This document shows, one piece after another, positions 1-7,965 of a DNA stretch of 7,965 bases. The DNA comes from a virus (taxonomy: Duplodnaviria > Heunggongvirae > Uroviricota > Caudoviricetes). The first letter of the stretch is position 1. Each line of letters begins with the position of its first letter. The position numbers and the translations under genes are program-made. Under the pieces are notes generated by a model. It was not told the origin of the DNA. It worked only from the letters and a program-made list of their open reading frames with translations, and did not search any database. The DNA lies in IMG/VR virus record IMGVR_UViG_2711768023_000001; one strand, 5' to 3'.

Positions 1-86
1 CTCCAATGACTAGTCTAAAAACTAGTATTAAGACTATCACTTATTTAAGTGATACTGGTTGTCTGGAGATTCAGGGGGCCAGTCTA
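1..86 (-). mobile_element. IS2 left end (IRL and adjacent sequence), partial; the element continues beyond the left edge of the window
   Basis: Reverse complement of 1..86 matches, from memory, the first ~86 nt of IS2 (TAGACTGGCCCCCTGAATCTCCAGACAACCA.TATCACTTAAATAAGTGATAGTCTTAATACTAGTTTTTAGACTAGTCATTGGAG), with the terminal TAGACTGGCC at 77..86. All three forward frames contain stops. Recalled sequence, not searched. Confidence 0.8.
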
Positions 87-109
87 GTAAGGCTGCGAGA
101 GGTGAATAA
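87..109 (+). pseudogene. 3' remnant of a class-II holin (pinholin S21-like) gene truncated by the IS2 insertion
   Basis: Frame 2 reads ...K-A-A-R-G-E-stop (aag gct gcg aga ggt gaa TAA, 89..109), matching the recalled C-terminus of phage 21 pinholin (...RRKAARGE). The TAA overlaps the endolysin ATG (TAATG), as in lambdoid S-R junctions. Upstream of position 87 the sequence is IS2, not holin. Confidence 0.5.
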
Positions 110-482
110 TGTCGCCATCATTACGCAAGGCTGTTGCAGTTGCTATTGGTGGCGGGGCTGTTGCTATAGCATCTGTGTTAATCACTGGCCCAGGTGGTAA
201 CGATGGTCTGGAAGGTGTCAGCTACATACTATACAAAGATATCATTGGTGTATGGACTGTATGTCACGGACACACCGGAAAAGACATCATGCCTGGTAAA
301 ACGTATACCGAAGCAGAATGCAAAGCTCTCCTGAATAAAGACCTTGCCACTGTCGCCAGACAAATTAACCCGTACATCAAAGTCGATATACCGGAAACAA
401 CGCGCGGCGCTCTTTACTCGTTCGTTTACAACGTGGGCGCTGGCAATTTCAGAACATCGACGCTTCTTCGCAAAATAAACCA
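109..482 (+). CDS. R: SAR endolysin (phage 21 R-like lysozyme, T4-lysozyme/GH24 fold), 3' end hidden in the N gap
   Basis: ATG 109 with GAGAGG Shine-Dalgarno ~7 nt upstream. N-terminal Gly/Ala-rich weakly hydrophobic segment ([21 protein letters not shown]) typical of a signal-anchor-release domain, followed by the Glu/Asp/Thr catalytic context (GLEG..YKD..VWT). Near-identical over 125 residues to recalled phage 21 R / E. coli prophage lysozymes. The ORF runs into the N run at 483. Confidence 0.9.
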
Positions 483-933
483 NNNNNNNNNNNNNNNNNN
501 NNNNNNNNNNNNNNNNNNNNNNNNNNNNNNNNNNNNNNNNNNNNNNNNNNNNNNNNNNNNNNNNNNNNNNNNNNNNNNNNNNNNNNNNNNNNNNNNNNNN
601 NNNNNNNNNNNNNNNNNNNNNNNNNNNNNNNNNNNNNNNNNNNNNNNNNNNNNNNNNNNNNNNNNNNNNNNNNNNNNNNNNNNNNNNNNNNNNNNNNNNN
701 NNNNNNNNNNNNNNNNNNNNNNNNNNNNNNNNNNNNNNNNNNNNNNNNNNNNNNNNNNNNNNNNNNNNNNNNNNNNNNNNNNNNNNNNNNNNNNNNNNNN
801 NNNNNNNNNNNNNNNNNNNNNNNNNNNNNNNNNNNNNNNNNNNNNNNNNNNNNNNNNNNNNNNNNNNNNNNNNNNNNNNNNNNNNNNNNNNNNNNNNNNN
901 NNNNNNNNNNNNNNNNNNNNNNNNNNNNNNNNN
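483..933. other. Run of 451 N (assembly gap or masked sequence)
   Basis: Uninterrupted n characters. The X-containing ORFs in the track across this interval are artifacts. Confidence 1.
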
Positions 934-1116
934 AAATGCCCTGTGCCATCCTCAGCCGAAACCTCCAGCGCCTCCGGCATGGGCAATGATGCCACCGTCG
1001 AACTCTCTCCAGTTGCTGGACGAAACGTTCTCGGTATCCGGGACGGAATCATCAGCGACCAGACAGCATTGAGAATGCTTCAGGAGTACATCAGGATCCA
1101 ATGCCTTGGGGGGTAG
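934..1116 (+). CDS. Rz: i-spanin (Rz-like), C-terminal part only; 5' end in the gap
   Basis: Open frame emerging from the gap and ending at TAG 1114..1116. The C-terminus (...LQEYIRIQCLGG) has a Cys near the end, like lambda Rz (...YINEQCR). Sits immediately downstream of the endolysin and contains a nested +1-frame proline-rich ORF. Confidence 0.6.
   Translation, partial: KCPVPSSAETSSASGMGNDATVELSPVAGRNVLGIRDGIISDQTALRMLQEYIRIQCLGG
935..1072 (+). CDS. Rz1: o-spanin (Rz1-like lipoprotein), nested in the +1 frame of Rz; 5' end (signal peptide) in the gap
   Basis: The +1 frame reads ..ALC-HPQPKPPAPPAWAMMPPSNSLQLLDETFSVSGTESSATRQH, stop TGA 1070..1072. Pro-rich with a PPAPPAW motif like lambda Rz1 (PPPPPAW). 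The Cys at 944..946 is a plausible lipobox Cys. Confidence 0.6.
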   Translation, partial: NALCHPQPKPPAPPAWAMMPPSNSLQLLDETFSVSGTESSATRQH

Positions 1117-1204
1117 CGGTAATTTTACTCATTATCCTTCAAATCAGATTCTGTTGTCAGAGGAATGGGGGAAGCTGGATTCGCAAGAGCTTTTTATGGG
1201 CAGT

Positions 1205-1714
1205 TTAGCTAAAAAAAGGCAACACGAAGCTAAAACTACCAACATAAAGTGCTGACCAGCTAGCAGCTGAAATCAGACTCACTGTATACACTTTCACTGG
1301 ATGAAGTTGCAACATTCCTGCCACCAAAGGAGCAATATAACGCAGCACGGCGATAAAGCGCGAAGTGAAAAGTATTGACACAGAGTTATTTTGCAACTGA
1401 AGGCGAACCCGTTCTATTGTATTGGAACGGCTTGATATTATACATGCAAGTTGAGGGATATGCCCAATTATTATACCAAGATGGTAATTAACGATAGTAC
1501 CGCACCATGCGCCACTCATGACCGTGATTCCAGCTTCCCATGGTGAAAGAGTCGTCTTGCTGACTGTAATTACAGTGGCCATCATAATTGATGCTGGTGG
1601 CAATATCGCCGAAATGAGTAAAGTGGATTTTGTGAACGCTATTATAAAAAGAAGCCCCCATAGGCGATATGGATGAAGTACAAAATAGTTCATCAAAGCA
1701 TTTATCCACTCCAT
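1205..1714 (-). CDS. DedA/YqaA-family-like polytopic inner-membrane protein (moron, function unknown)
   Basis: 510-nt ORF on the complement strand. ATG is the complement of 1712..1714, preceded by an AGGAA Shine-Dalgarno; the track's first codon is a TTG at 1715..1717. Stop TAA is the complement of 1205..1207. The protein is mostly hydrophobic with several predicted transmembrane helices and resembles recalled E. coli YqaA (P..S..PW...T.G...G..N..LG ... LRY). The region is visibly AT-rich relative to flanking phage genes. Confidence 0.7.
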   Translation of the reverse strand: MEWINALMNYFVLHPYRLWGLLFIIAFTKSTLLISAILPPASIMMATVITVSKTTLSPWEAGITVMSGAWCGTIVNYHLGIIIGHIPQLACIISSRSNTIERVRLQLQNNSVSILFTSRFIAVLRYIAPLVAGMLQLHPVKVYTVSLISAASWSALYVGSFSFVLPFFS

Positions 1715-1767
1715 CAATGTCTTTCCTTCTGTGAATTTTTCTTTGCTATTTAACCGTGATACGACTT

Positions 1768-1797
1768 AATTTAGGCTTAAACACCTTACATTTACAA
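1768..1797 (-). promoter_or_regulatory. Putative sigma70-type promoter for the moron gene
   Basis: On the complement strand: TTGTAA (complement of 1792..1797), 18-nt spacer, TAAATT (complement of 1768..1773), about 55 nt upstream of the moron ATG. Weak match by eye, no experimental support. Confidence 0.2.
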
Positions 1798-1911
1798 GGT
1801 ACTCCTGTGGGGGGCCCTGCCACGGAGCGTCGCAGGAGTGAGTGATGAGGAAGAATTAAAGCAACCTATTGTGACAGGCAGCGATAACAGTAAATCACAG
1901 GAAGCATAATC

Positions 1912-2676
1912 ATGGCAAAACCGGACTGGGAGGCCATCGAATCGGCATACCGGGCCGGAGTCCTTAGCCTCCGTGATATAGGCGAGAAATACGGCGTTAC
2001 AGAAGGGGCTATCAGGAAGAGGGCCAAAAAGCTTGGTTGGGCACGCAGTGGCGGTACGCAGGTTTGCAAAAATGGTACGCAAAAAAGGAAAGTGCGTACC
2101 AGCAGAAAGCCTGCCATTACTGGCCTTACACAAAAAAGTACGCAACTAAAAACAGAATCTACACCGGATACGAAACCGATACGCGGAATGCGTACCGATC
2201 CCCCGACTAACCCATTCCAACCCGGTAACCAGCAGGCATTAAAACACGGTGGTTATGCCCGTCGCCTTCTGCTCAAAGATGAGGTGATAGAGGACGCTAA
2301 AGCGTTGACGCTCGAGGACGAATTATTTCGCCTTCGTGCTAACAACCTTGTCGCTGCAGAGAATATTGGTCGGTGGTTGGTGTCGCTGGAAGATGCTAAT
2401 GGGGACCAGGAAAGGAAGATGCTGATTGAAAATATCAGCGCCGCCGAGAAAGCAATGATGCGCAATACAGTTCGTATTGAGTCCATCGTTGGCACGCTTG
2501 CGACGGTAGGAAAAATATTTGCTGATACAGCCTACCGCAAGGCCGCCACTGATAAGGTGTCTCTGGAGGCTGATCGTCTTCGCCGTGATGCAGGTATTGA
2601 TGATGGCAATGGAGAGCGTGACCTCAATGACTTCTACTCTGACATCCAAACCGACGCTGAATCCGGCTTTACGTAG
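1912..2676 (+). CDS. Terminase small subunit (HTH-containing)
   Basis: ATG 1912 with AGGAAG Shine-Dalgarno 8 nt upstream. N-terminal helix-turn-helix-like segment (LSLRDIGEKYGVTEGAIRKRAKKLGW), basic central region, acidic C-terminus. Lies immediately upstream of, and overlaps, the large terminase gene. Stop TAG 2674..2676. Confidence 0.8.
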   Translation: MAKPDWEAIESAYRAGVLSLRDIGEKYGVTEGAIRKRAKKLGWARSGGTQVCKNGTQKRKVRTSRKPAITGLTQKSTQLKTESTPDTKPIRGMRTDPPTNPFQPGNQQALKHGGYARRLLLKDEVIEDAKALTLEDELFRLRANNLVAAENIGRWLVSLEDANGDQERKMLIENISAAEKAMMRNTVRIESIVGTLATVGKIFADTAYRKAATDKVSLEADRLRRDAGIDDGNGERDLNDFYSDIQTDAESGFT

Positions 2677-4030
2677 TTTCTGGACTATGCGGGCACGTAA
2701 CAAAGTGCTTTATGGTGGTCGGTCATCGTCAAAATCATGGGATGCCGCTGGCATTGCCATATTTCTGTCGAATAAATACACCCTGCGTTTTTGTTGTGCC
2801 CGTCAGATCCAGAATAAAATCGAAGAGTCGGTGTATACCCTGCTCAAAATTCAGATAGACAGGTTTGGTCTGCGGCACCGTTTCCGTATTCTGAACAACA
2901 AAATCATTAACCGGGTTACTGGCTCGGAATTTGTTTTTTATGGATTATGGCGCAACATCGAAGAAATTAAGTCACTGGAGGGGATCGATGTGTTGTGGCT
3001 GGAAGAAGCCCACGCACTGACGGAATACCAGTGGAAAATTCTGGAGCCAACGATCCGTAAAGAGGGTTCGGAATGCTGGTTCATATTCAACCCCGGACTT
3101 GTTACTGATTTCGTCTGGCGCAACTTCGTTGTTGATCCGCCCGAAGGCACTCTCATCCGCAAAATTAACTATGACGAAAATCCGTTTCTGTCTGACACCA
3201 TGCTTAAGGTTATCGACGCGGCGCGACGCCGTGATCCGGATGGTTTTAAACATGTGTATGAGGGCGTTCCGGAGTCTGATGATGATGCGGCAATCATCAA
3301 ACTGTCTTGGATAGAAGCCGCAGTGGATGCGCACAAAACGTTAAATTTCGAACCCAGTGGAAGAAAGCGTATTGGCTTTGACGTGGCTGACAGTGGTACA
3401 GATAAGTGCGCTAACGTTTACCGTCACGGATCCGTTGTTTTCTGGGCCGACGAATGGAAGGCCAAAGAAGATGAATTACTGAAGAGCTGCCAGCGTACTT
3501 ATCAGGCGGCGCTGGAGCGTGAAGCAGATATTGTTTACGACTCTATCGGTGTTGGTGCGTCTGCCGGTGCTAAATTCTCTGAAATTAACGCTGACCGGAA
3601 GAGCGAGAACGCATACGCGCGACGTGTGAATTACCAGAGGTTTAACGCCGGTGCTGGTGTGCATGAGCCAGATGACGAGTACAACGGCATCCCCAACAAA
3701 GACTTTTTCGCAAATCTTAAGGCTCAGGCATGGTGGCTGGTGGCTGACCGTTTCAGAAATACGTTTAACGCCATTAACAACGGAGAACAGTATCCTGTGG
3801 ATGAGCTGATCAGCATAGATTCTCGTTGTCCGTTGCTTGAAAAGCTGAAACTGGAACTGACAACACCTCATCGTGATTTCGACCGTAACGGACGTGTGAT
3901 GGTCGAAAGTAAAAAAGACCTCGCAAAACGCGAGATACCGTCACCAAACGTTGCTGATGCATTCATTATGGCCTTCGCGCCAATCGATACATCGCTGGAT
4001 ATCTGGGAACAGCTGGGGAGACAGGCCTGA
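2627..4030 (+). CDS. Terminase large subunit (PBSX/Terminase_6-like ATPase-nuclease)
   Basis: The ORF is open from 2519. The most plausible start is ATG 2627 (MTSTLTSKPTLNPALRSFW...) with GGAG 12 nt upstream, overlapping the TerS 3' end; alternative ATGs are at 2600, 2603 and 2609. P-loop YGGRSSSKSW, Walker-B-like DVLWLEEAH, C-terminal nuclease-domain acidic motifs (IGFDVADSG.., ..VADAFIMAFA). Stop TGA 4028..4030. Confidence 0.9.
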   Translation: MTSTLTSKPTLNPALRSFWTMRARNKVLYGGRSSSKSWDAAGIAIFLSNKYTLRFCCARQIQNKIEESVYTLLKIQIDRFGLRHRFRILNNKIINRVTGSEFVFYGLWRNIEEIKSLEGIDVLWLEEAHALTEYQWKILEPTIRKEGSECWFIFNPGLVTDFVWRNFVVDPPEGTLIRKINYDENPFLSDTMLKVIDAARRRDPDGFKHVYEGVPESDDDAAIIKLSWIEAAVDAHKTLNFEPSGRKRIGFDVADSGTDKCANVYRHGSVVFWADEWKAKEDELLKSCQRTYQAALEREADIVYDSIGVGASAGAKFSEINADRKSENAYARRVNYQRFNAGAGVHEPDDEYNGIPNKDFFANLKAQAWWLVADRFRNTFNAINNGEQYPVDELISIDSRCPLLEKLKLELTTPHRDFDRNGRVMVESKKDLAKREIPSPNVADAFIMAFAPIDTSLDIWEQLGRQA

Positions 4031-5496
4031 TGGCACGAAACAAACAAGCCCTGCGGCGAACTGTGCAGGCCACAGCTGATGGTTATGAGAATTTTATTGC
4101 CCGCGTAGGGATGCAGACACCTAACCAGCACTCAGCATCCACCTACCGGGCTAATTTCACCAGTCGTAACCGCATGCTGGTGGAATGGTCCTATCGTTCA
4201 TCCTAGATCATCGGCGAAGCAGTCGATGCTATCCCGGATGATATGACCCGCAAAGGCATTCGCATCACTTCGGAAATTGATGCAAAAGATCGTGGCATTC
4301 TCGAATCACAACTGGATGAGTTGCAAATCTGGGATGCGCTGAATGACGTGCTGAAATGGTCGCGCCTCTACGGCGGCGCGGTGGGTTTCATCATGATTGA
4401 GGGGTAGGCACCAATGACCCCGCTGCGACCCGAAACCATCGGTAAGGGCAAGTTTAAGGGGATTCTCCCGCTCGACCGCTGGATGGTCGACCCGGCACTG
4501 ACCCGCCGCATTAAAGATATGGGGCCGGACCTGGGTAAACCTGAGTTTTACGATGTGGTGACCACAGCAACGGGAATTCCTGCCTGGCGCATTCATCACA
4601 GTCGCCTGATTCGCTTTGATGGCGTCACGTTGCCATTTCAGCAGAAGATGACCGAGAACGAATGGGGAATGTCGGTTGTAGAGCGTATCTGGGATCGTCT
4701 TACCGCGTTCGACAGCGCTACTGTCGGCGCGGCGCAGCTGGTCTACAAGGCGCATTTGCGTACCTACAGCGTGGAGAAGCTACGCGAGCTTATCGCACTT
4801 GGTGGTCCTGCGTATGAAGCGTTGCTGAAGAATATCGACCTGATTCGACAGTTCCAGAGTAATGAAGGCATGACGCTCATGGACTCGCGGGATAAGTTTG
4901 AAACCCATCAGTACAGCTTCAGTGGTCTGGATGACATCCTTTCGCAGTTTGTAGAACAGATTAGTGGCGCTGTTGGTATCCCACTGGTGCGGTTGTTCGG
5001 ACAGTCCCCGAAAGGATTTTCTACCGGTGATGCAGACCTTGCCAACTATTACGATCGCATCAGTTCGTTGCAGGAGAGGCGTTTACGTCTTCCGGTGCGG
5101 CGGATACTGGACATCATGCATCGTTCGGAACTTGGCAAGCCGCTGCCGGACGATTTCACGTTTGAGTTTAACCCGCTCTGGCAAATGTCTGATGTCGATC
5201 GCTCAACGGTGGCGTTAAACACCACCAACGCAATCAGTACGGCGCTGGGTGATGGTCTGATGACACTGAAAGCCGCTATGACTGATTTGCGAGAAAATTC
5301 TGACGTAACCGGCATCGGGGCATCCATTACCGACGAGGACATCGAGAATGCCGAAGATGAAGCGCCGCCCGGCATCGGCGAACCTGATGACGAACCGCAG
5401 GAGCCGTCAGGCGGAAATCCGGTATCGAACCAGCCTACGCAGGATAGCGAGGGCGGTCGGAGACATCGTAAATGGTCGCTACGATGGTTCAAATGA
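4030..5496 (+). pseudogene. Portal protein gene interrupted by two in-frame amber (TAG) codons
   Basis: ATG 4030 overlaps the TerL stop (TGATG) with GGGGAG 9 nt upstream. A single frame runs 4030..5496 (486 sense codons) except for TAG at 4204..4206 and 4405..4407. The peptides on both sides read as one continuous portal N-terminal region (..YRANFTSRNRMLVEWSYRSS*IIGEAVDAIPDDMTRKG.. and ..RLYGGAVGFIMIEG*APMTPLRPETIGKG..). The longest uninterrupted part is 4414..5496 (360 aa). Acidic C-terminal tail; stop TGA 5494..5496. Confidence 0.8.
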
Positions 5497-6130
5497 CAGT
5501 ATCACGGAAATTATTGCGGCGCTGGAGCGTTACAGTGAAATCATCACCCCCTGGGCGACAAAGGTCGCGGAAAACTTTACTGCGGACCTAACCCGGCAGA
5601 ACGAGAAAGTTTGGCGGCAACACAGCAAGAACATCAGTCGCGAGCTCCGCAATCTTGTGGAAAGCGCTCCTGTGGGCCAGGTGATGCAATCCATCATCGC
5701 CGAACAGGTCAAGTACATCAAATCTCTGCCTCTCGAGGCCGCAGACAGGGTGTACGACATCCAGAACAAAGCGATAGAGGCTGTTGTCACCGGTGGTCGG
5801 GCGGAGCAGTTTGCTAAAGAGATTGCATCTACCGGCGATGTTGCTAAGTCTAGGGCCGATCTGATTGCCCGAACGGAACTGGGAAGAGCAACGGGCGCGC
5901 TGGATATGGCCCGAGCGATAGCTATTGGCTCGGATGGTTATATTTGGCGTACAGCCGATGATGGCGATGTCCGAGATTCCCACGATCACATGAAAGGTAA
6001 ATTCGTCCGCTGGGATTCACCTCCAACTTTGGACGGCATGACCGGCCACGCGGGCGAGCTGCCAAACTGCCGCTGCTATAAAGAGATCGTGTTTGTTCGC
6101 GTTCCATTCGCAATGAAAAGGGCAGCATAA
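5348..6130 (+). CDS. Head morphogenesis protein (phage Mu F-like / SPP1 gp7 family minor head protein)
   Basis: Carries the hallmark C-terminal motif of the Mu-F family (YIWRTADDGDVRDSHDHMKGK....GHAGELPNCRCY). ATG 5348 has a GAGGA Shine-Dalgarno 9 nt upstream; alternative in-frame ATGs at 5357 and 5387. Overlaps the portal 3' end by 149 nt. Stop TAA 6128..6130. Confidence 0.8.
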   Translation: MPKMKRRPASANLMTNRRSRQAEIRYRTSLRRIARAVGDIVNGRYDGSNDSITEIIAALERYSEIITPWATKVAENFTADLTRQNEKVWRQHSKNISRELRNLVESAPVGQVMQSIIAEQVKYIKSLPLEAADRVYDIQNKAIEAVVTGGRAEQFAKEIASTGDVAKSRADLIARTELGRATGALDMARAIAIGSDGYIWRTADDGDVRDSHDHMKGKFVRWDSPPTLDGMTGHAGELPNCRCYKEIVFVRVPFAMKRAA

Positions 6131-6133
6131 CCC

Positions 6134-7354
6134 ATGAAATACTTTTTTGAGACCAGGCTCGGGGAAACCCGATACCGCCTGGCTGACGGCTCGTTGCTGT
6201 GCAAAGACGTGCCGATAGGACGAACAGGTAAGCAGCTCTATGGTGCTGATGACCTGCCAAAACTGAAACCCGATAAGTTCGGTGAAATAGTCGTCACGCG
6301 TTCTCCTGAGCAGGTATTCCATCCGGCCACGCTTGCCTCATTCGAAGGGATGAGCATCACGATCCTGCATCCTGAAGATGAAAACGGGAATGTGCGGCTG
6401 GTAAATCCCGAGAACTGGAAAGAGCTTGCTGTCGGGCACCTCCAGAATGTCCGGCGCGGGACGGGTGAGCAGTCTGATTTGATGCTGGCTGACCTTATCG
6501 TCAAAGACGAAAGCGCCATTCAGCTTATCGAAGATGGCCTGCGCGAAGTGTCGTGCGGCTATGACGCGGAGTACGAGCAGACCGAGCCAGGTAAAGCCGA
6601 GCAGGTCGATATTACCGGAAACCATGTGGCTCTTGTCCCTAAAGGCAGAGCCGGAAATCGTTGTGCAATTGGAGACAGAGACACAATGGCAAATCAAAAG
6701 AAAAACTGGTGGAACCGCATGCGTGCGGCCATCAAGACAGGAGATGCCGACACCATGAACGAACTGGTGGAGTCGGCTCCCGCATCGGTTACAGGAGATG
6801 AGGGGGATTTGCCGCAGGGCGTTAATCTCAACATCAACCTGTCCCCGCAGCAACCACTACCGGACAAAGCACCAGAGATGGGCGGAGATCCAACCGGCGA
6901 CAGTGATGATGACCTCAAAACATTACTGAAAGCCCTGCTGGCTAAGCTGGAAAGAAATGCCACGGGCGATAACGATAATAAGCCTGACGATAATCCGACC
7001 GGTGACGGCGAGGACGATGAAGAGGAAACCACGATTACTGGTGACTCAGCCTGGCGTGCCGAAGTTATCGTTCCGGGTATCGATCTGAGCCGTAAGATGA
7101 AACCGACCGCGTTCAAACGCGAGGTTCTGGCTTCTGCTGACAAAACGCTGGTTCGCCAGATAGTCGGTGATGCGGATATCCGCAAATTACCGAAACAATC
7201 GGTCGACATGGCGTTTAATGCCGTGTCTGAGGTTGCCAAAGGGCGAAACACCCGCGCCACCACCGGCGATGCACAGCGCCTAAACATGGGCATGACCAGT
7301 ATCGCTTCCCTGAACAAACAAAACGCTGAATTCTGGGCAAACCGTAAAGGGTAA
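6134..7354 (+). CDS. Phage head-assembly protein, DUF2213-like N-terminal domain with an acidic TGD-repeat scaffold-like region
   Basis: ATG 6134 sits 3 nt after the upstream stop, with a purine-rich AAAAGGG 11 nt upstream. The N-terminal ~180 aa (MKYFFETRLGETRYRLADGS..HPEDENG..) resembles recalled DUF2213 phage proteins. The middle is acidic low-complexity with repeated TGD motifs; the C-terminus is more basic and helical. Position between the Mu-F gene and downstream structural genes fits a scaffold/protease role. Stop TAA 7352..7354. Confidence 0.7.
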   Translation: MKYFFETRLGETRYRLADGSLLCKDVPIGRTGKQLYGADDLPKLKPDKFGEIVVTRSPEQVFHPATLASFEGMSITILHPEDENGNVRLVNPENWKELAVGHLQNVRRGTGEQSDLMLADLIVKDESAIQLIEDGLREVSCGYDAEYEQTEPGKAEQVDITGNHVALVPKGRAGNRCAIGDRDTMANQKKNWWNRMRAAIKTGDADTMNELVESAPASVTGDEGDLPQGVNLNINLSPQQPLPDKAPEMGGDPTGDSDDDLKTLLKALLAKLERNATGDNDNKPDDNPTGDGEDDEEETTITGDSAWRAEVIVPGIDLSRKMKPTAFKREVLASADKTLVRQIVGDADIRKLPKQSVDMAFNAVSEVAKGRNTRATTGDAQRLNMGMTSIASLNKQNAEFWANRKG

Positions 7355-7357
7355 AAA

Positions 7358-7864
7358 ATGAATAATGTATTTCTGTACCGGATGCCTGTTGGCATTGCCG
7401 GGGCTGTCTCTCGCCCGCAGGACTTAACCGTCGAACCGGTGGTCCTTAAATCCGATAACGCCTTCGCTGCCTATGGCCTGGCTGGTAAATACGATGATGA
7501 CGGTTTTTTCGTGCCGCTGGCAGATGGTGATACCGCAGACAAGGTGAAGGGGATCTACGTGCGCCCTTATCCGACCACGTCGCAGCCGGACATGGTTCGC
7601 CAGGTGGGAACAGGCAAGAACTTCCCGGGCGACGCCATGAAGCGTGGCTACGTGACCGTTAATCTCGGTTCTGATTTTGATGCCAGCACTATCAAAAAAG
7701 GCGATCCGGTATACGTTGTCGTCTCCACTGATGAATCCATCAAAGTGCCGCTGGGTGGATTCATGTCCACGTCAGTCAGTGGCAAAAACGTGGTGCTGAC
7801 CAACGCTGAATTCACAGGTGCCGGTGATGCTGACGGCAATGCAGAAATTTCCTGGAAGATTTAA
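7358..7864 (+). CDS. Hypothetical phage structural protein (possibly a head cement/decoration-type protein)
   Basis: ATG 7358 with AAAGGG Shine-Dalgarno 7-9 nt upstream, tightly packed 3 nt after the preceding gene. 168 aa, Gly/Asp-rich. No motif I can assign confidently; the role is inferred only from position in the head module. Confidence 0.6.
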   Translation: MNNVFLYRMPVGIAGAVSRPQDLTVEPVVLKSDNAFAAYGLAGKYDDDGFFVPLADGDTADKVKGIYVRPYPTTSQPDMVRQVGTGKNFPGDAMKRGYVTVNLGSDFDASTIKKGDPVYVVVSTDESIKVPLGGFMSTSVSGKNVVLTNAEFTGAGDADGNAEISWKI

Positions 7865-7879
7865 GGAACAGACGAATGA

Positions 7880-7965
7880 GGTGATGCTGCCAACTTACTG
7901 ATTTAGTGTATGATGGTGTTTTTGAGGTGCTCCAGTGGCTTCTGTTTCTATCAGCTGTCCCTCCT
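7880..7965 (+). mobile_element. IS1 left end (IRL plus start of insA), partial; the element continues beyond the right edge of the window
   Basis: 7880..7965 matches, from memory, the first ~86 nt of IS1 (GGTGATGCTGCCAACTTACTGATTTAGTGTATGATGGTGTTTTTGAGGTGCTCCAGTGGCTTCTGTTTCTATCAGCTGTCCCTCCT). Recalled sequence, not searched. Confidence 0.85.
7935..7965 (+). CDS. insA: IS1 InsA (transposition repressor), 5' fragment only
   Basis: GTG 7935 followed by GCT TCT GTT TCT ATC AGC TGT CCC TCC (ASVSISCPS), the recalled N-terminus of IS1 InsA. Truncated by the window edge. Confidence 0.6.
   Translation, partial: MASVSISCPS

Follow-up and report, generated by a model that had tools for sequence, protein, structure and literature searches.

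An IS2 insertion in the pinholin gene of a prophage of Shigella sonnei

The window, a stretch of 7,965 nucleotides, is very probably a fragment, bounded by IS2 and IS1, of a hybrid prophage, lambdoid and SEN34-like, that is defective, has been conserved in Shigella sonnei and has had its pinholin gene split by IS2 (Table 1). The first-pass annotation, which was made from the window alone, had proposed that IS2 removed the pinholin; in the complete S. sonnei chromosomes, 66 of the 71 holin codons, including both TMDs, survive on the other side of the element. The course of events that best accounts for this arrangement is an insertion at GTAAG that split the gene with nothing deleted and left the endolysin gene (R) its Shine-Dalgarno sequence and its ATG; R would have lost its translational coupling to the pinholin gene (S) and come to lie 1.3 kb further from any upstream promoter, so that expression of R, Rz and Rz1 would rely on antiterminated read-through across IS DNA. 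Overall, the locus exemplifies the IS-driven prophage decay that is typical of Shigella.

Table 1. Features of the window (positions counted from its first nucleotide)
Feature	Position	Strand	Basis or remark
IS2 left end (IRL and P_IRL region, element nt 1..86)	1..86	-	86/86 identity to annotated IS2
GTAAG, right-hand copy of the 5-bp target-site duplication (includes the K codon)	87..91	+	Flanks compared
3' remnant of class II (phage-21 S type) pinholin, K-A-A-R-G-E-stop	89..109	+	Direct reading
Shine-Dalgarno region AGAGGTGA of the endolysin (putative function)	98..105	+	Direct reading
SAR endolysin R (R21/RrrD type), codons 1-125 visible	109..482	+	PDB, Pfam, composition
N run	483..933	.	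451 N; identical genomes have 408 nt here
Rz (i-spanin) 3' part, with embedded Rz1 (o-spanin) 3' part	934..1116	+	Rz stop 1114..1116; Rz1 ends 1072
Portal (DUF1073/Phage_portal_3) pseudogene	4030..5496	+	Two nonsense substitutions relative to L002
IS1 left end, 86 nt	7880..7965	+	86/86 against annotated IS1A in L003 6001..6086

Origin of the window and the IS2 target site

Seven complete chromosomes (L004, L005, L007, L008, L010, L011 and L013) were retrieved by the exact sequence of the DUF2213 protein variant encoded in the window, and positions 1..482 together with 934..7965 match all seven at 99.97-100%. One of them, L011, is the chromosome of S. sonnei 75/02 (CP019689; PMC5447701), in which the locus (3472137..3493357) falls within prophage region 75/02pp10, a neighbour of pgl-ybhD-ybhC. 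This region was labelled 'intact' by PHAST, was assigned Salmonella phage SEN34 as its homolog, and was described as common to other S. sonnei genomes (PMC5447701); the head genes of the window also match SEN34, consistent with that assignment. The exact IS2/holin/R junction gave 0 matches in a scan of GTDB species-representative genomes, and positions 1..482 as a single piece are absent from complete E. coli genomes, so the junction is lineage-specific.

The identification of positions 1..86 as an IS2 terminus in reverse complement proved correct: their reverse complement equals 11048..11133 of E. coli FDAARGOS_943 (L003) at 86 of 86 positions, a match far above chance, in a copy that PGAP annotates as 'IS3-like element IS2 family transposase' with a programmed frameshift (CDS start 11139). 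The full copy in L005 (2666..3996, 1331 bp) is 99.85% identical to the IS2 of L003. The element is 1331 bp long in five of the seven loci, and the lengths in the other two (1330 and 1327 bp) are probably due to assembly indels; its gene calls are of 121 and 301 aa, or a fused 409 aa, with HTH_Tnp_1 and rve domains.

A 5-bp duplication of GTAAG had been predicted beyond the far end of IS2, and GTAAG is present there: it stands on both sides of the element, with the same flanks throughout, in all seven complete genomes. In L005, the left boundary reads ...AGAGAAGATAAGC GTAAG followed by IRR TGGATTTGCCCC..., and the right boundary reads ...GGGGGCCAGTCTA followed by GTAAG GCTGCGAGAGG. The empty site, with one GTAAG, is found in L001, L002, L003 and L009, and on L002 the two S. 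sonnei halves overlap by exactly 5 bp (GTAAG, 5197..5201). This is a simple insertion of IS2, with the canonical duplication of 5 bp, into codons 65-66 of a holin gene of 71 codons, the target being GTAAG.

Both ends of the window carry exactly 86 nt of IS DNA (IS2 on the left, IS1 on the right), and these equal lengths of repeat, together with the internal gap, suggest that a de Bruijn assembler built the scaffold from short reads and broke off in IS copies; the N run may then be a scaffold gap rather than a length-preserving mask. The N run hides the 3' end of R (including the D127Y and R136C substitutions described below), the 5' part of Rz and the start of Rz1, a stretch that recurs in other prophages (R-3'/Rz, median 2 and maximum 8 places per E. 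coli genome); the masked R/Rz sequence was taken from complete genomes that agree fully with the window wherever it is not N. The same 86-nt ends and the wrong length of the N gap (451 versus 408) would also fit an IS2/holin junction that is itself an assembly artefact, a chimeric contig end arising from repeat collapse, but the same junction, the full IS2 and both copies of the duplication occur in seven independently assembled complete chromosomes, on which ground the artefact was rejected and has a negligible probability. The case illustrates that a split gene can pass for a removed one where a contig of a short-read assembly stops in an IS.

The split pinholin gene

From position 87 the window reads GT AAG GCT GCG AGA GGT GAA TAA TG, in which the holin stop codon TAA (107..109) overlaps the endolysin ATG (109..111), as the first-pass annotation had it. 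The remnant is identical to the 3' end of the intact holins in L001, L002, L003, L006, L009 and L012, and positions 87..482 are 99.7% identical to E. coli loci in which a 71-codon gene for a 'class II holin family protein' is followed by rrrD. The K of the remnant belongs to the target duplication, and the truly displaced holin codons are AARGE and the stop only. The 5' part of the gene, which had been expected beyond the far end of IS2, is there in the complete S. sonnei genomes: the first 66 codons (MYQMEKISTG...YFKIREDKRK) are intact, directly abut the element, and run in frame into 28 IS2-encoded codons (tail WICPYISRHLLSLNPLQARCRRYSRGER).

The chimeric product keeps the dual start M1/M4 (MYQM), the TMD1/loop/TMD2 sequence and the charged stretch to K66, with a hydropathy peak at approximately residues 33-47; its IS2-encoded tail has a net charge of +5 and a hydropathy too low for a third TMD. 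Residues 5-66 of the ORF match Pfam PF04971 (Bacteriophage P21 holin S) with E=1.7e-34, covering positions 1-62 of the 64 in the profile; the product is not a complete native member of the class II holins because its last 5 native residues have been exchanged for the 28 foreign ones. A 91-aa form of the chimera, counted from M4, is already in public databases on 234 contigs with S. sonnei names, as 'lysis protein S' or 'class II holin family protein [Shigella sonnei]'.

A reading in which IS2 insertion and an adjacent deletion eliminated the pinholin, leaving a truly orphan endolysin that perhaps owed its expression to a promoter reading out of IS2, is invited by the window, which alone shows just the last holin codons, and by the frequency with which IS elements delete adjacent DNA, of which the IS1 copy at 7880 is an example. 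This is nevertheless very improbable: in all seven genomes 66 holin codons abut the far end of IS2 with the GTAAG duplication, the end that faces R is IRL whereas the outward -35 lies in IRR, and a promoter scan found nothing on the + strand. For the sequenced S. sonnei chromosomes, the 66 codons across IS2 refute elimination of the pinholin.

How much function the split gene retains can be considered in the light of experiments on the phage 21 pinholin, in which S21-68 still formed pores after being shortened from the C-terminal side as far as K56 or fused to other proteins at its C-terminus, only the truncation to K56 altered pore behaviour (by raising Ca2+ efflux), and S21-56 fused at its C-terminus to oligomeric proteins still made pores (bioRxiv 10.1101/2021.04.20.440580). 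The S. sonnei chimera is native through K63 in S68 numbering. By the published truncations and fusions, the lost part of S21 is dispensable for pore formation. The description of the pinholin as removed is structurally wrong and is probably too strong functionally as well. The term 'orphan' for the SAR endolysin was likewise overstated, given that a slow spontaneous release of SAR endolysins takes place even where there is no holin (PMC9239132). Were the chimeric pinholin functional, it would be one more naturally occurring case by which to judge how much change the C-terminus of S21 tolerates.

The lysis cassette of phage 21 (the S21 pinholin/antipinholin S68/S71, R21 and Rz/Rz1) has the same gene order and the same TAATG overlap, and its S resembles the S. 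sonnei holin in the M1/M4 dual start, the YWFLQW patch, the LDQVSPSQ loop and K56; the two cassettes share an R that is nearly identical to the 3HDE lysozyme and an Rz with embedded Rz1. Unlike phage 21, S. sonnei has a holin that is interrupted by IS2 after codon 66, the substitutions P41L, D127Y and R136C in R and C18R in Rz, and a cassette within a defective prophage whose head genes resemble those of SEN34. A phage-21-type cassette in a defective lambdoid prophage is also known as essD-rrrD-rzpD/rzoD of DLP12 in E. coli K-12, and PGAP names the homologs of the S. sonnei cassette rrrD/essD. The essD gene of DLP12 itself is presumably intact; the holins of the E. coli relatives L001-L003 are uninterrupted, in contrast to the S. 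sonnei holin split by IS2.

Transcription across IS2 and the endolysin and spanin genes

The end of IS2 that faces R is IRL, and IRR points back into the 5' part of the holin gene, so that transcription of the late operon would run into the element through IRR and out through IRL, antisense to the transposase. This corresponds to the classical polar orientation of IS2, a circumstance on which the present argument does not draw; a search for literature on the polarity of IS2 in orientations I and II yielded nothing usable. The weak native promoter P_IRL, just within IRL, reads inward, toward the transposase, and the strong promoter Pjunc is formed solely by the joining of IRR to IRL in the minicircle (PMC3299598). 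The outward -35 that IS3-family elements contribute to fusion promoters is located in IRR, and the genes activated by IS2 include ampC, acrEF and neoR (PMC9330008). These gene-activating insertions involve the same element with a 5-bp duplication next to a gene start, as here, but in S. sonnei IRL rather than IRR faces the gene, the endolysin; because IRR faces away from R, the fusion-promoter mechanism of IS2 cannot drive it. The IS2 fusion promoter of ampC was reportedly described by Jaurin and Normark in 1983.

A consensus promoter scan of the holin-IS2-R interval returned no + strand promoter, and a consensus terminator scan of the same interval returned no new + strand intrinsic terminator inside IS2, the sole + strand terminator-like site lying in the native holin coding sequence. 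The outward promoter activity that had been suggested for the IS2 end facing R is thus not borne out, this end being IRL with its inward P_IRL. By eye, a weak 8/12 match to the sigma-70 consensus can be picked out on the + strand inside IRL (TTAAGA-17 nt-GATACT, window 28..56); it falls below the threshold of the scan and does not count as evidence of a promoter, though the site might conceivably give rise to R transcripts. The frame of the holin remnant contains several stops in the IS2 end, leaving only a 17-codon mini-ORF with a TTG start.

Two further IS insertions lie upstream of the S. sonnei holin (L005 1008..2457, L010 672..1918). An IS3-family element takes the place of the tRNA region or cluster downstream of the Q-like antiterminator gene, and in the S. 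sonnei genomes retrieved it is always between the antiterminator/late-promoter region and the holin. An IS110-family element with a 398-aa DEDD transposase stands approximately 7 bp before the holin ATG in most genomes (present in L004, L005 and L011, which were compared directly, and absent from L010), and may serve as a lineage marker because it varies among S. sonnei genomes. Since a late transcript must cross 2.6-4.0 kb of IS DNA, expression of R, Rz and Rz1 is probably weak or absent, although RNA polymerase modified by Q could in principle read through all of these elements.

The endolysin belongs by sequence to the SAR class, as had been proposed. R is a protein of 165 aa that matches Pfam Phage_lysozyme (E=1.1e-43) and, among solved structures, RrrD of E. 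coli (4ZPU, E=2.9e-104) and the lysozyme of phage 21 (3HDE, E=2.1e-103), with a complete catalytic E-X8-D-X5-T (E35, D44, T50) and a G/A-rich SAR domain at residues 8-27 (12 of 20 residues G, A, S or T) that is nearly identical to the N-terminus of R21 in 3HDE. Sec-dependent export, membrane tethering and release dependent on the PMF are established for R21 and for Lyz of phage P1 (PMC9239132). The Shine-Dalgarno sequence of R sits within the holin remnant, and hence has been kept downstream of IS2 together with the ATG. Rz is a full-length protein of 156 aa (L005 4513..4983; Pfam Phage_lysis, E=9.9e-30), and the embedded +1-frame Rz1 is a full-length protein of 68 aa (L005 4733..4939; Pfam Rz1, E=3.8e-21) with a VVGC lipobox. 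The S. sonnei variant of R is found on 892 public contigs with S. sonnei names.

The nearest allele is that of L001, from which the S. sonnei R-Rz sequence differs by 4 nonsynonymous and 0 synonymous changes: P41L (window nt 230), D127Y and R136C in R, and C18R in Rz, those other than P41L being at L005 4397, 4424 and 4564. The first lies between the catalytic E35 and D44; D127 is kept in all four solved relatives for which alignments were shown, including the distant 9kbs. The 4:0 pattern and D127Y hint at relaxed constraint on the lysis genes, which need not mean inactivation. Counting all 7 differences of R/Rz from L002 as new mutations was rejected, as L001 shows that some of them are allelic (mosaic).

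It can be asked whether the split cassette is still a working lysis module, possibly a domesticated one, with the chimera acting as a pinholin in a controlled autolysis of S. sonnei. The 5 additional positive charges of its cytoplasmic tail might alter the timing, and R, Rz and Rz1 would be transcribed by read-through or by a cryptic promoter. The retention of native sequence to K63, beyond the point to which S21 tolerates truncation and fusion, would permit this, and so would full-length R, Rz and Rz1 genes with intact triad, SAR domain and lipobox, a Shine-Dalgarno sequence of R's own, and conservation of the locus on hundreds of contigs. The substitution pattern, including D127Y, suggests relaxed constraint instead; between the late promoter and these genes there are as many as three IS elements, the neighbouring prophage genes are plainly decaying, and a species as young and clonal as this would be expected to conserve the locus in any case. 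A working module is rated very unlikely. Its more specific form, a domesticated autolysis module in which a retimed, functional IS2-tailed pinholin would act with R and the spanins, for example in the release of colicin, DNA or vesicles, seems very unlikely too; if true, it would be a case of an IS-encoded peptide tail re-tuning a holin. The reading preferred here remains that of a pinholin split in a decayed prophage. The persistence of R, Rz and Rz1 as full-length ORFs on hundreds of contigs is a counterpoint that could mean either a recent insertion or retention.

State of the prophage

The portal gene was compared with its counterpart in L002, an E. coli relative that is intact and shares 99.9% identity over 6.9 kb, and has two stop codons, at 4205 (TGG>TAG, codon 59) and 4405 (CAG>TAG, codon 126), as well as one more nonsynonymous change. 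At the right end of the window, IS1 interrupts the major capsid (DUF2184) gene 4 nt past its ATG (7876). This IS1 has a length of 768 bp in the complete S. sonnei genomes (L005 11747..12514), shows no target duplication, and is followed by a truncated invertase-like ORF and then by chromosomal pgl-ybhD; nothing in the DNA beyond IS1 in these genomes matched the genes from capsid to tail that the relatives carry. The lack of a target duplication and the non-prophage DNA that follows point to an IS1-associated deletion of the capsid-to-tail genes.

The prophage cannot make particles, and the state of the lysis cassette is therefore without consequence for phage release. Prophage 75/02pp10, with its split holin, its portal gene with two stop codons, and without capsid or tail genes, is an example of how 'intact prophage' labels of the PHAST type can be wrong (PMC5447701). 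Pseudogenisation by IS elements is well documented in Shigella (PMC8072062), and the present prophage is alike in combining IS1, IS2, IS3-family and IS110-family elements with an IS-flanked deletion and nonsense mutations, a pattern of decay that is conserved across the S. sonnei genomes retrieved; it has no distinctive difference from such decay and is one more instance of it. The finding is ordinary, and the chimeric ORF and the endolysin variant have already been deposited and named under S. sonnei.

Between the lysis cassette and the terminase genes there is a minus-strand gene for a DedA/VTT-domain membrane protein of 170 aa (1205..1717; Pfam VTT_dom, E=9.3e-14), which is also present in intact E. 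coli relatives (WP_011069285.1) and looks like a moron. The prophage of L003, in which the holin is intact, has an IS2 copy of its own (11048..12378) in the large terminase gene, with GCTGG on both sides, and an IS1 copy (6001..6768) upstream of the tRNAs; because this nearly identical prophage bears independent IS1 and IS2 insertions at other sites, prophages of this type are a repeated target of IS elements.
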